64,000 nt of DNA from Escherichia coli (GTDB lineage Bacteria > Pseudomonadota > Gammaproteobacteria > Enterobacterales > Enterobacteriaceae), in NCBI RefSeq assembly GCF_044324875.1, contig NZ_CP172185.1; one strand, 5' to 3'. Below the pieces are notes generated by a model that saw only the letters and a list, made by a program, of their open reading frames with translations, did not search any database and was not told the origin of the DNA. This document shows positions 10,607-20,394 of the stretch, in pieces. Numbering within the stretch: position 1 is the stretch's first letter; each line of letters begins with the position of its first letter. A program made the position numbers and the translations under genes.

Positions 10607-10975
10607 TTACTTTTTCGTTTCGGGCGTCGGATAAACAGCCAGATAAACGTAACCACAGGAGCCGAGGGTGTCGGCTTCGCAGGTCAGCCCTTTCGCATAC
10701 AGCGTGACGGTATGCTGATGTCGGGGATTCAGTTCACCGCTGGTGAGCATGAGTTCCAGTTGTTTCATCAGCAGCGGAAAGGCCTGGTCCAGATGGTATG
10801 CATCTGCGTCGCTGAAGCGGCCTCTGATACCGGCGCGGTCGGCAAGGTAATGCAGGCGGTTACCCTCCTGCACCAGACGAGCGCCAAAACAGGGCCTCAC
10901 TGTGCAGGGAAGCCCCCACCAGGGGCGGTCGTGATTGTCGTCGGGATGAGTTATCCCGGAGAGTTTGTCTGACAC
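10607..10975 (-). CDS. cbeA: type IV toxin-antitoxin antitoxin CbeA/YeeU family
   Basis: 122 aa; strong identity to remembered YeeU ([40 protein letters not shown]). Confidence 0.9.
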
Positions 10976-13611: not shown

Positions 13612-13689
13612 ATCTGTTTTCTCCTGATAAATAAAAAGCCTCTGCCACGCGTTGTGACAGAGGCTGAAGCATGAAACTGACTTCAGGGA

Positions 13690-14145
13690 TCAGTTAACGT
13701 TTTTTCCGGAAACGGTAATCAGCAGTGGATGGTAGTCCTGGGGATTGAAAACCGATAACGGCAGACTGACACGATGGCCGTTACTTTCTTCAGTTGCTTT
13801 AATGATTTCGGTTGTGGCGACATTTTCCACGCACTCCGTTTCCAGAAATGCGTCTGTGGTTCGCGTGGCATTACTGTCACCAAAAGCTTCCGTTTCCATT
13901 TTTCTGGTCACCAGCGTCTGACCATATTTGTCTTTGAGTTGCAGAGTGATGGTGAGGGGGCCAAATCCTTCATCGTTTCCGCCATTATCCAGCCGGAACT
14001 GGTAAGCACAAATATTTCCCGGGAGCCATATCGTATCTGTATTGCGTATACTGATGTAACGTTGATCCTGTGCCCGGAGTGGGGCAGACCACGTTAACCC
14101 CAGAATGAAGGCGGTAATCATGCAGGTTTTGAACAGGTGAATCAT
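13690..14145 (-). CDS. secreted/lipoprotein, YfjS/YafY-like
   Basis: 151 aa with N-terminal signal peptide (MIHLFKTCMITAFILGLTWSAPLRA). Confidence 0.6.
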   Translation of the reverse strand: MIHLFKTCMITAFILGLTWSAPLRAQDQRYISIRNTDTIWLPGNICAYQFRLDNGGNDEGFGPLTITLQLKDKYGQTLVTRKMETEAFGDSNATRTTDAFLETECVENVATTEIIKATEESNGHRVSLPLSVFNPQDYHPLLITVSGKNVN

Positions 14146-14220: not shown

Positions 14221-16743
14221 TTATGCCGGTAACTCCGGGGGTAATGCTTCTTCCAGTCGGTTAACCATATTGCCGAGATGGGATGCATCATATTCCATGA
14301 CGGGGCGTTGCCTGATGATACTGACCACCAGTGGTTTGATTAACATATTGGTCGCGGCCCGTTGTTGTATACCGGCGGCGAAAATGATCTCCAGAGCATT
14401 CTGATCGATAACACGGGCCAGATTCTCGTTCAGATTTTCAATCTCATGTCCGGTCAGCAGGAAACTGCCGGCAAGCCATGTCACCTGCTCCTGAATCATT
14501 GCCAGAATTTTGACGCGATCTTCTTCAACCAGCGCTCCGGCAATTTTTCCTGATACAGCGGAGGCAATCATTCCCCCCAGAACACCGCCAACCACACGCC
14601 CTGTCAGTGCACCAAATGGTCCCAGTGGACTGAACAGTATTCCGCCCGCCACTGACCCGACAGCACCACCTGCCACACCGGAAGATGCCACGGCAAGATT
14701 CCTGATGAACTGCGTACCGGAGATCCGTCCCCGCAACATTTTGATCATGTCAGGGCCGGTTGTGACAGCTACCAGTGCCAGAGATGTCACCAGCGTACCC
14801 TTCATCACTTTGTTCAGGGCACTGATATTTCCTGCACCGGTCCCCTTCTGAAGAGCCAGTCGGACAGTCGGGCTGGCAGTCGAAAAATCAATGTGCTTCA
14901 GCATACCCTGAACAACACTGAGCCGGTGGAGTTGCTGGGTTGTGACGTAGACAGCCAGTGTGCGGGTGAAGGTTTTTCCTGCCTGGACAGCAGCTGTCTG
15001 CAGGGCAGCATCGCGATCGCCGGTGCTGAGCCAGAAGACCGATGCCGTCAGGGCAAAACTGATCCCTCCGGCCGCCAGACTGACAACCGAACCCTCGGCA
15101 ATATCATAAGTGACCGATTCGATGGTCCCGAACCGGGTGATATTACGGGCCTGAGTATAAGTCAGATGTCCCCGACGAATCAGCCGGGATGCTTCTGCGG
15201 GATCGGTTACACCGGGTACTTTACCTTCGCGGATCTTATTCCTCATGGTTTCAACAGCGCCGGCATACTGATCACGGGGGACTTCCAGTTGCATGGGGCC
15301 ATTATTTCCCATGTAACGATACTGTCCGTTTTGTCCGTCGAATGCCGCACCGACGCTACGGGCTGCAGTTGAACAATATTTCGTCTGGATTTCTGTTCCG
15401 CTGACCAGTCTGTCTGCTCCATTTCTGGCATTATTATCACCGAGGATCCGTGCGTTTTTCAGACGGACTCTGTCGACAATATGGTTTCCCCGTTCAGCGG
15501 CAAACCCATGTCCCTGCCCTCCGGAAGCAAACATTTTCTCATTTGTACTCCAGGTTTCCGGCAGTTTCATGAGAATCAGACCATTCGCCGTTGCATCGGA
15601 AATAAAGCTGTTGTAAGGGCGTTCATAAATTTCCTGACACAGTGTTTCTGTTTCGCGACAAAGAGAGGAGCAGTACCATTCCGGATCCGGCTTATGATTT
15701 TCCGGGGCATGATGTACTTCTGTCAGCCCGCAGGAGGCACAGATACGAAGCTCATCCACGTGATGGAATGATACAAAACGGCGACCTTCTGAAAAGGGAT
15801 ACCAGTCACCGCCGTCCAGGCAACGATCGAGAAAATCGTCATTCGCTTCCGGTGATAAATTCAGGCGGTTCCGGAAGAGCGTTTTCAGTTCATCAGGTGT
15901 GAATGACAGGTTCTCTTTCAACTGTTCGTTAAACCCTGCCATGTTTCTTTCATACCAGGCATTGTTCAGTAACCAGTTTCCGTCTGCCAGTTCAAATTCC
16001 CTCAGCTCTCCCCGGGAAATCCGTTGAGAAATGAGCGTCAGCCAGATGCGCTCCGTCAGTGAGTCAGGAAGGCTGTAATCGTTTTGCAAACTGGTCAGCC
16101 ACGATTTACTGTTGAGCACCGGTTGTTCTTCCAGTGTCTGGCTGATGGCACAGGTCAGTTTTTTCAGCGCCTGGATTTGGCTGGCCGCCCATAGCAGCGT
16201 CACTAATGCAGCCAGCCAGTACAACAACCCGCCCCACCACATCAGTGACGGTGAAATATCGTACTGTAACGCGATCAATGGTGCGCATGCAGAACACGCC
16301 ATAAGGAAAAAGGCAGTATAAAAACAGCAGTAATACCCGTTAATTTCCTTGCTGATATCTTCTGGTGTGATCCCGTTCTGCTGAATGTTTTTGATCTGCA
16401 GGGGAACAGCCAGCAGACCACCGGCGAGAGCGGTGGTCAGAATAAATTTCACAGAGTCAAAGGTGTGAGCCTCCAGCGCGATATGTTTACCATCAAGTCC
16501 CCACATGAAGCTGATGATCATTCCGGCAATCGTCAGAAATACGCCTGCCAGCCAGCGAATATGGAACAACCGGGTTATGCGTTCGGTGATATAGCCAGCC
16601 AGTAAGGCCGGGCCGAACAGACACAGCAATATGAGCCCTGCCAGCGCAGAAGCCGTGCTGATTAATGCTCTGAACAAAAGGCGAAGAATGGCAAATCCTG
16701 CGATCAGCAGGATCAGCGCGCCGACTATCTGTAACATAGTCAC
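14221..16743 (-). CDS. large inner-membrane protein, YeeR-like (downstream of Ag43)
   Basis: 840 aa; N-terminal TM helices, Cys cluster (CASCG...CSSLC), C-terminal Gly-zipper-rich hydrophobic region; occupies the yeeR position. Confidence 0.7.
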   Translation of the reverse strand: MTMLQIVGALILLIAGFAILRLLFRALISTASALAGLILLCLFGPALLAGYITERITRLFHIRWLAGVFLTIAGMIISFMWGLDGKHIALEAHTFDSVKFILTTALAGGLLAVPLQIKNIQQNGITPEDISKEINGYYCCFYTAFFLMACSACAPLIALQYDISPSLMWWGGLLYWLAALVTLLWAASQIQALKKLTCAISQTLEEQPVLNSKSWLTSLQNDYSLPDSLTERIWLTLISQRISRGELREFELADGNWLLNNAWYERNMAGFNEQLKENLSFTPDELKTLFRNRLNLSPEANDDFLDRCLDGGDWYPFSEGRRFVSFHHVDELRICASCGLTEVHHAPENHKPDPEWYCSSLCRETETLCQEIYERPYNSFISDATANGLILMKLPETWSTNEKMFASGGQGHGFAAERGNHIVDRVRLKNARILGDNNARNGADRLVSGTEIQTKYCSTAARSVGAAFDGQNGQYRYMGNNGPMQLEVPRDQYAGAVETMRNKIREGKVPGVTDPAEASRLIRRGHLTYTQARNITRFGTIESVTYDIAEGSVVSLAAGGISFALTASVFWLSTGDRDAALQTAAVQAGKTFTRTLAVYVTTQQLHRLSVVQGMLKHIDFSTASPTVRLALQKGTGAGNISALNKVMKGTLVTSLALVAVTTGPDMIKMLRGRISGTQFIRNLAVASSGVAGGAVGSVAGGILFSPLGPFGALTGRVVGGVLGGMIASAVSGKIAGALVEEDRVKILAMIQEQVTWLAGSFLLTGHEIENLNENLARVIDQNALEIIFAAGIQQRAATNMLIKPLVVSIIRQRPVMEYDASHLGNMVNRLEEALPPELPA

Positions 16744-16857: not shown

Positions 16858-20239
<3,382 letters not shown>

Positions 20240-20394
20240 CCACTACAAAACAGCATGGTCAGATAAAGTGGTTTTTCCCGGACATAAATGTTTCCCCTCT
20301 CTCATCCGCCAGAGAAGCATCAGTCCGTTGTGTGCAATTCCGTTCTGCATGATGAAGAGATTCAGCTGCCTTTTCGCAGACCATTAACCACTAT

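Follow-up and report, generated by a model that had tools for sequence, protein, structure and literature searches.

SNIPE, a GIY-YIG nuclease bound to the membrane, cleaves phage DNA during its injection and becomes toxic once its tether is removed (bioRxiv 10.1101/2025.11.03.685801). Its inner-membrane anchor is joined to a module that binds DNA and to a nuclease domain in the cytoplasm, and the N-terminal membrane part varies across SNIPE homologues. A similar layout is predicted for YeeR, an island-encoded protein of Escherichia coli, the gene of which was analysed here in a stretch of 64,000 nucleotides from contig NZ_CP172185.1 (NCBI RefSeq assembly GCF_044324875.1); this whole stretch is called the window hereafter. 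The likeness is an analogy only, and the two proteins are unrelated in sequence and fold. Whereas SNIPE consists of a single transmembrane (TM) helix, DUF4041 and a GIY-YIG domain, YeeR is polytopic, contains a PD-(D/E)xK-like domain and possesses an extra glycine-zipper module. No Pfam match to DUF4041 or GIY-YIG was found in YeeR, and its predicted fold is different. The chances appear about even that YeeR is a membrane-anchored nuclease-type effector, borne by an island, in the conflict with phages or mobile DNA.

In E. coli K-12, the same gene is found in the same place after flu (agn43), and its product is listed as 'inner membrane protein YeeR' of the CP4-44 prophage. The genes agn43, yeeR and irmA have been reported to form one co-transcribed operon that is regulated by OxyR (PMC4807369). 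The gene is already known, and so are its truncation in K-12, the Pfam family of its C-terminal part and a distant paralogue, which is listed as a candidate in PADLOC. In the searchable literature, no link of YeeR to a nuclease, to defense or to PDC-M09 was found. Nor did this literature yield a description of the nuclease-fold core and its invariant residues, of the winged helices and the zinc motif, of the position of the core between two membrane modules or of the association with WYL and PDC-M09 genes.

The minus strand of the window carries one unbroken open reading frame (ORF) across 14221..16743, as seen in the ORF listing and its translation, and the plus-strand translation of the same segment is full of stops. 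This is not a chance ORF; it is an intact, full-length E. coli yeeR gene. An earlier note on this DNA had described an intact ORF of 840 amino acids (aa) without stating its strand. The uninterrupted frame stands, but the length does not: the figure of 840 codons originates from a GTG at 16743 that overlaps the Shine-Dalgarno sequence. The start context reads cacGGAGtgactATG, with GGAG located 5 nt upstream of the ATG at 16737, which is therefore the likely start and yields a protein of 838 aa. The same ATG is the start in RefSeq (WP_001315618.1, 838 aa, 'hypothetical protein') and in K-12 yeeR. The earlier note had called it the largest intact ORF of the yee-type module, and it is indeed the largest one between positions 9000 and 22000 of the window. 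Residue positions are given in the 838-aa numbering; those in the alignment and in the output of AlphaFold2 (AF2) run one higher. The AF2 model of the whole protein, based on 70 homologues, has a mean predicted local distance difference test score (pLDDT) of 82. The following features were delineated in the gene:

14221..16737, minus strand: full-length yeeR coding sequence, 838 codons plus stop; the ORF reaches GTG 16743.
15121..15528, minus strand: predicted PD-(D/E)xK (restriction-endonuclease-fold) domain, residues ~404-539 (model and conservation).
15217..15219, minus strand: codon 507, the last residue in common with K-12 YeeR (alignment).
15625..15750, minus strand: Cys4 motif resembling a zinc ribbon or treble clef, C333-x2-C336 ... 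W-Y-C356-S-x2-C360 (alignment and AF2).
15751..16128, minus strand: tandem winged-helix-like region, residues ~204-329 (winged-helix matches).
16171..16737, minus strand: membrane bundle of five to six hydrophobic helices at the N terminus, residues 1-189 (hydropathy and AF2).
14536..15090, minus strand: conserved C-terminal membrane module, residues ~550-734 (hydropathy and Lys/Arg profile of 70 sequences).
14224..14535, minus strand: C-terminal soluble helical domain, residues ~735-838 (alignment and AF2, pLDDT ~75-89).

The domain at residues ~404-539 is the most conserved part of YeeR, and an alpha-beta-beta-beta-alpha-beta core is predicted for it. When this core was modeled alone with 60 diverse sequences, the pLDDT was 89.9 and the predicted template modeling score 0.83. 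The model predicts a restriction-endonuclease-type fold with the conserved residues on the canonical elements. The signature comprises H410-G-x-x-A-E415 in helix 1, D442-R443 where strand 2 begins, Q451-x-K453 in strand 3 and E485-V-P in strand 4. Among 318 family sequences, conservation is 100% at E415, D442, Q451, K453 and E485 and 98% at H410, and R443 is virtually invariant (Lys in <0.5%). Such absolute invariance of the E, D, Q, K and E residues is as expected of a catalytic site.

The same core fold, as predicted for YeeR, is that of the PD-(D/E)xK superfamily, with members such as the CdiA-CT of Burkholderia pseudomallei 1026b, NgoMIV/Cfr10I, Hjc, NucS and HamA. The acidic residue in helix 1 (E415), the aspartate at the start of strand 2 (D442) and the lysine of the xK motif in strand 3 (K453) are in canonical positions in the YeeR model, but the residue preceding this lysine in the motif, Q451, is a glutamine in 100% of the sequences instead of the usual aspartate or glutamate. 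Replacement of D/E by Q is a known variation, which occurs in TnsA, and an S/Q-x-K motif with a recruited glutamate is found in NgoMIV and Cfr10I. The missing carboxylate may come from E485 on strand 4, as it does in sites of the NgoMIV/Cfr10I type. Another difference from the superfamily is that the YeeR domain is inserted between two membrane modules; we know of no characterized PD-(D/E)xK member with the domain in such a position. Searches against Pfam, NCBIfam and PDB gave no profile match to any described nuclease family, and a Pfam scan of 60 core-domain sequences with E-values up to 10 yielded noise only.

The core is preceded by the winged-helix-like region and the Cys4 motif (residues ~330-371). 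All four Cys residues are invariant in 30 full-length homologues, and AF2 models the motif as a beta-hairpin knuckle followed by the N terminus of a helix; metal binding is a prediction. We take the C-x2-C ... (F/Y)CS-x2-C spacing in YeeR to resemble that of zinc ribbons of the FCS/TRASH type; Pfam gave no confirmation of such a ribbon in the protein. The earlier note had recognized a central soluble region with a CxxC...CxxxC cluster, and C333, C336, C356 and C360 are indeed present in the sequence and invariant. However, the winged helices and the most conserved domain of the protein, i.e., the predicted nuclease fold at residues ~404-539, had been missed.

YeeR is an integral, polytopic inner-membrane protein. 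The predicted N-terminal TM helices were found back in the hydropathy profile and as AF2 helices over residues ~1-189, with helices modeled at 2-58, 62-83, 94-121, 126-160 and 164-205 at pLDDT >90. This bundle is restricted to the full-length, proteobacterial type of YeeR. The Lys/Arg content of the loops, averaged over 70 sequences of the family, obeys the positive-inside rule, which would place residues ~190-550 in the cytoplasm.

The C-terminal membrane module contains hydrophobic helices at residues ~550-571 and ~647-663 and a charge-free glycine-zipper hairpin at ~680-734 (window 14536-14700). The latter segment shows (G/A/S)xxxG repeats, GGAVGSVAGGILFSPLGPFGALTGRVVGGVLGGMIASAVSG; the Gly-rich string quoted in the earlier note is located at ~689-734. 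The hairpin of ~50 residues is hydrophobic and charge-free in all 70 aligned relatives, short forms included. Such small-xxx-small repeats are shared with glycine-zipper proteins, i.e., the C19orf12-like family (PF20721), Gly-zipper_Omp (PF13488) and DUF1269, which give weak, sub-threshold matches in YeeR or its relatives. In YeeR, however, the zipper is one module of a much larger protein. The C19orf12 match scores 16.2 bits against a cut-off of 30, and the segment remains below the threshold of every glycine-zipper family in Pfam. The pLDDT falls below 50 at ~685-736 (686-737 of the 839-residue model). The glycine-zipper repeats reported earlier are thus present and conserved, but their designation as membrane-perturbing is only an analogy.

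The C-terminal helical domain that follows is conserved across the family, the profile of which runs to ~815 in the short forms; for residues ~735-838, no known counterpart emerged. When the entire protein was scanned with Pfam-A and NCBIfam, nothing was found beyond the sub-threshold C19orf12 match. A PHROGs search gave weak tape-measure-like matches of low complexity only, and PDB sequence searches, whether started from the protein or from the profile of the domain, gave chance matches to Hsp70 and L7Ae only. Hence, in Pfam-A, NCBIfam and PDB, no characterized family aligns along the whole protein, in line with the earlier note, which had named such an alignment as what would speak against its description.

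The conserved unit of the family consists of the nuclease-like domain, the membrane module and the C-terminal domain, and corresponds to the Pfam family YeeR_C (PF27347). A precomputed match to this family is available for nearly all homologues and for a cluster representative (P0001) that is 99% identical to the window protein, so that membership of the latter rests on this representative and not on direct scoring. Full-length homologues in other Proteobacteria are 35-68% identical to YeeR. When 1.84 billion cluster representatives were searched by profile, at least 1,767 relatives (clusters at 50% identity) emerged at E ≤1e-3, with 751 at E ≤1e-30. In a scan of one genome per species, 192 loci were found in Proteobacteria, Firmicutes, Actinobacteria, Cyanobacteria, Chlamydiae, Lentisphaerae and others. 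A census of modules was made in 233 members with a complete YeeR_C unit. Bundle, winged helices and zinc motif occur together in 80 of them, and the zinc motif is found without the bundle in another 38, with or without the winged helices, which brings its total to 118. The winged-helix region occurs alone in a single member, and none of these N-terminal modules is present in the remaining 114. Other extensions found on YeeR_C are Sel1/TPR repeats, TM2, DUF805, TerB and FGE-sulfatase domains.

In one metagenomic protein of 1,335 aa (P0254), a microbial poly(ADP-ribose) glycohydrolase (PARG) domain and an ADP-ribosylglycohydrolase (ARH) domain are fused N-terminally to YeeR_C. This fusion represents one cluster among the 65 that were scanned. 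Residues 729-838 of P0254 also match the PADLOC model BnzA. Among 2.9 million viral contigs, only nine YeeR_C loci were encountered, mostly at contig ends; on this ground, the readings of yeeR as a phage gene or as a gene for superinfection exclusion were rejected.

The YeeR protein of K-12 (b2001) is only 510 aa long. It is identical to the window protein over 507 of 507 residues, after which three unrelated residues follow and then a stop that overlaps yeeS. A deletion in K-12 has therefore taken away the final third of yeeR along with irmA and further genes as far as yeeS. In the K-12 protein, the nuclease-like domain breaks off before its end, and the membrane/glycine-zipper module and the C-terminal domain are missing altogether; in the K-12 island, irmA through the antirestriction gene are absent. 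The suspicion in the earlier note that the ORF is longer than that in K-12, where a truncated copy resides, was thus correct. The truncation itself is not new: yeeR was reported to be disrupted by a large deletion in MG1655 (Moriel et al., PMC4807369) and to be truncated in K-12 (PMC6480617). The truncation of the copy in this laboratory strain may explain why no phenotype has ever been assigned to yeeR. The gene is widespread. A match was found in 2,582 of 5,426 complete E. coli genomes, with ≥80% coverage in 1,800. Its DNA is 100% identical in many genomes, and up to five copies occur per genome. Present in about half of the complete genomes and often in multiple copies, yeeR is among the commonest uncharacterized island genes of E. 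coli.

The gene neighborhoods of YeeR_C were clustered for 80 loci, and the nearest neighbors were surveyed for 50. In individual loci, YeeR_C is found among genes for integrases, relaxases, insertion sequence (IS) elements, HicAB toxin-antitoxin systems, PIN proteins, restriction-modification systems and TIR proteins, and some loci are solitary chromosomal genes. Regulators of the helix-turn-helix (HTH)-WYL-WCX class (BrxR/CapW type) are encoded near 18 of the 80 loci, mostly upstream and co-oriented, in Enterobacteria and Firmicutes. WYL-type regulators of this class co-localize with diverse phage-defense systems (PMC9122601, PMC9122589, PMC9122588). In Enterobacter, Serratia and some E. coli strains, a YeeR that is 68% identical is encoded directly after the PADLOC candidate pair PDC-M09A/B.

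PDC-M09B (~480 aa) shares with YeeR_C the motifs HG..AE, (P/G)AD...QxK(F/Y) and xPKD, which are followed in both by a hydrophobic, Gly-rich C-terminal half. However, none of the modules that precede the core in YeeR (membrane bundle, winged helices, zinc ribbon) is present in it. It also needs its partner M09A, a coiled-coil and glycine-zipper membrane protein, whereas the window that contains yeeR has no M09A gene. Hidden Markov models of PADLOC match YeeR and its short relatives at E-values of 1e-5 to 1e-7. The PDC-M09B model scores 23.3 bits (E 4.8e-6) against YeeR, as compared to 704-710 bits for true M09B proteins, which excludes membership at the family level, and hhalign of YeeR_C with M09B gave a local match of 85 columns with a probability of 27%. 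Judging from these sequence comparisons, M09B is a distant paralogue of YeeR_C, and YeeR is not a member of the M09B family.

Two further kinds of neighbors were observed in particular lineages. In 10 Firmicute loci, e.g., L046 (6057-6440), L077 (6091-6438) and L073 (6103-6435), a conserved ORF of ~115 aa (110-127 aa) that carries the motif DFPF...NGFYLQELMH lies on the same strand as YeeR_C and either abuts its start or overlaps with it. It has no match in Pfam or PADLOC and is probably a lineage-specific partner of YeeR_C. Large proteins of one family adjoin YeeR_C in 13 of the 80 loci, in Veillonella, Selenomonas and Clostridia, e.g., in L079 (4163-6316 and 8575-11019), L038 (8976-10982), L096 and others. 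Of three such proteins analyzed with Pfam, two match Sel1/TPR repeats, one of them weakly, and one matches a GTPase domain of the EF-Tu type. Sel1 repeats also occur as fusions in some of the YeeR_C proteins. A universal operon partner can be dismissed, as the neighbors of the 50 loci surveyed are heterogeneous, and the WYL regulators, the 115-aa ORF, the Sel1/EF-Tu-like proteins and M09A/B are all lineage-specific.

If YeeR is a membrane-anchored nuclease-type effector, its nuclease-fold domain would act as a PD-(D/E)xK enzyme with a 'D...QxK plus extra E' site like those of TnsA and NgoMIV. The cytoplasmic unit composed of the tandem winged helices and the Cys4 zinc ribbon would bind nucleic acid for this domain. 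By anchorage in the membrane, a logic demonstrated for SNIPE, the active site would be held where DNA enters through the envelope, and cleavage would be restricted to DNA (or RNA) there, so that the chromosome is spared. The glycine-zipper module might mediate oligomerization or function as a membrane-coupled switch. In favor of such an effector are the invariant site on a confidently modeled fold, the conserved membrane module, the location among mobile elements, the nearby WYL regulators and the motifs shared with M09B. The analysis thereby turns a 'hypothetical membrane protein' into a specific proposal with defined residues for point mutants, i.e., E415, D442 and K453. If the proposal is correct, the few membrane-bound nucleases that are used in immunity would be joined by one of a new architecture, and part of the CP4-44/AGI-3 island module would have a function.

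Several observations weigh against such an effector. Given the glutamine at position 451 in place of D/E, the domain could bind rather than cleave its substrate. The zipper segment is poorly modeled, and the C-terminal third of the protein is dispensable for the life of K-12. Furthermore, most of the 80 loci have no recurrent partner, a scan of the window revealed no WYL, M09A or M09B gene, and most other E. coli yeeR genes also lack WYL or M09 neighbors. PDC-M09 is itself only a candidate defense system. In E. coli, yeeR is instead co-transcribed with genes for an adhesin and a secreted immune-mimic protein (PMC4807369).

A broader proposal is made only tentatively. YeeR_C and PDC-M09B could together constitute an undescribed class of immune or conflict effectors, in which a nuclease site resides in a polytopic zipper protein and cleavage of DNA (or RNA) is coupled to the membrane, either at DNA entry or at pore opening, and which in E. 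coli is wired into the agn43 operon. With an effector in this phase-variable, OxyR/Dam-controlled operon, immunity would switch with the aggregative state of the cells.

It is possible, but on balance unlikely, that YeeR is a pore former resembling abortive-infection proteins or toxins. The nuclease fold would then sense a nucleic acid or nucleotide ligand, upon which the zipper helices would oligomerize and depolarize the inner membrane. The conservation of the charge-free Gly-zipper hairpin in every family member would fit such a role, as would the fact that M09A, the partner of the paralogue, is likewise a coiled-coil and Gly-zipper membrane protein, and the weak matches to the membrane regions of C19orf12-like proteins and LeoBC. 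The QxK variant could mean that catalysis has been lost. Also, WYL-type repressors typically govern toxic abortive-infection effectors (PMC9122588). However, the invariance of E, D, Q, K and E across 318 diverse sequences is what a catalytic site would be expected to show, and the zipper does not reach the cut-off of any glycine-zipper family. The pore and the nuclease are not mutually exclusive; they are compatible with each other.

We regard as improbable a role that serves the island rather than anti-phage defense, for example in entry exclusion, or in processing or protecting the DNA of the island while it is transferred or becomes established. In E. coli, yeeR is part of a module of an integrative element with antirestriction, RadC/JAB, DUF932, CbtA/CbeA and inovirus-Gp2-like genes, other members of the family adjoin relaxase, resolvase or integrase genes, and the rarity in phage contigs discussed above (9 loci in 2.9 million) is consistent with such a role. 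However, many members stand alone in a chromosome, away from any transfer genes, and the association with WYL regulators and PDC-M09 suggests regulation of the defense type.

An accessory role in the function of Ag43 or IrmA is very improbable. K-12 makes functional Ag43 despite its truncated YeeR, and homologues in Pseudomonas, Methylomonas, Firmicutes and others do not have Ag43 or IrmA neighbors. The gene order agn43-yeeR-irmA is kept in many E. coli, and the OxyR-regulated co-transcription of the three genes (PMC4807369) would fit such a role. However, it is contradicted by the observation that the release of IrmA requires neither YeeR nor Ag43 (PMC4807369) and by the homologues without Ag43 nearby; in addition, irmA is served by a separate promoter in strain 042 (PMC9431211). 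That YeeR would be an ADP-ribosyltransferase-like enzyme of the R-S-E type instead of a nuclease, an idea raised by R443, S461 and E485, the first and last of which are invariant, and by the PARG/ARH fusion in P0254, is hardly credible, as S461 is Cys in 36% and Q483 is conserved in only 71% of the 318 sequences, the fusion is confined to that single cluster among 65, and no ADP-ribosyltransferase fold was present among the fold matches.

In the window, yeeR is located directly downstream of agn43, as the earlier note had placed it and as both RefSeq and the annotation of strain BEN2908 show, and upstream of irmA, in an island of the CP4-44/AGI-3 type. The island module around it encodes a GTPase, a DUF905 protein, DUF932, an antirestriction protein, RadC/YeeS, YeeT, CbeA/CbtA and YeeW. 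With the AGI-3-like island of the avian pathogenic E. coli strain BEN2908, which adjoins yicL/nlpA, the window shares 99.6% identity. The direct neighbors are:

16858..19041, minus strand: remnant of agn43 (Ag43), upstream neighbor, C-terminal 727 aa (annotation of the BEN2908 region).
13690..14145, minus strand: irmA, downstream neighbor, 151 aa.

An IS3-family element (~19040-20300) stands in for the 5' end of agn43 and its phase-variable OxyR/Dam promoter. Because of this replacement, Ag43 is present here only as the 727-aa C-terminal remnant, and yeeR and irmA are without the published operon promoter. The 120-bp spacer between agn43 and yeeR was scanned for a promoter of yeeR itself, and no sigma-70-like site was found. 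Downstream of irmA, a strong terminator-like hairpin with a 12-bp stem and a T-run is located at 13637-13665. IrmA, the gene of which is co-transcribed with yeeR, is a vaccine antigen. In the window, irmA is intact; in the otherwise 99.6%-identical island of BEN2908, it is frameshifted. Similarly, a CbtA/CbeA-type toxin-antitoxin pair (ORFs of 124 and 122 aa) at 10143-10975 on the minus strand of the window appears intact, and the CbtA homologue in BEN2908 is annotated as frameshifted.

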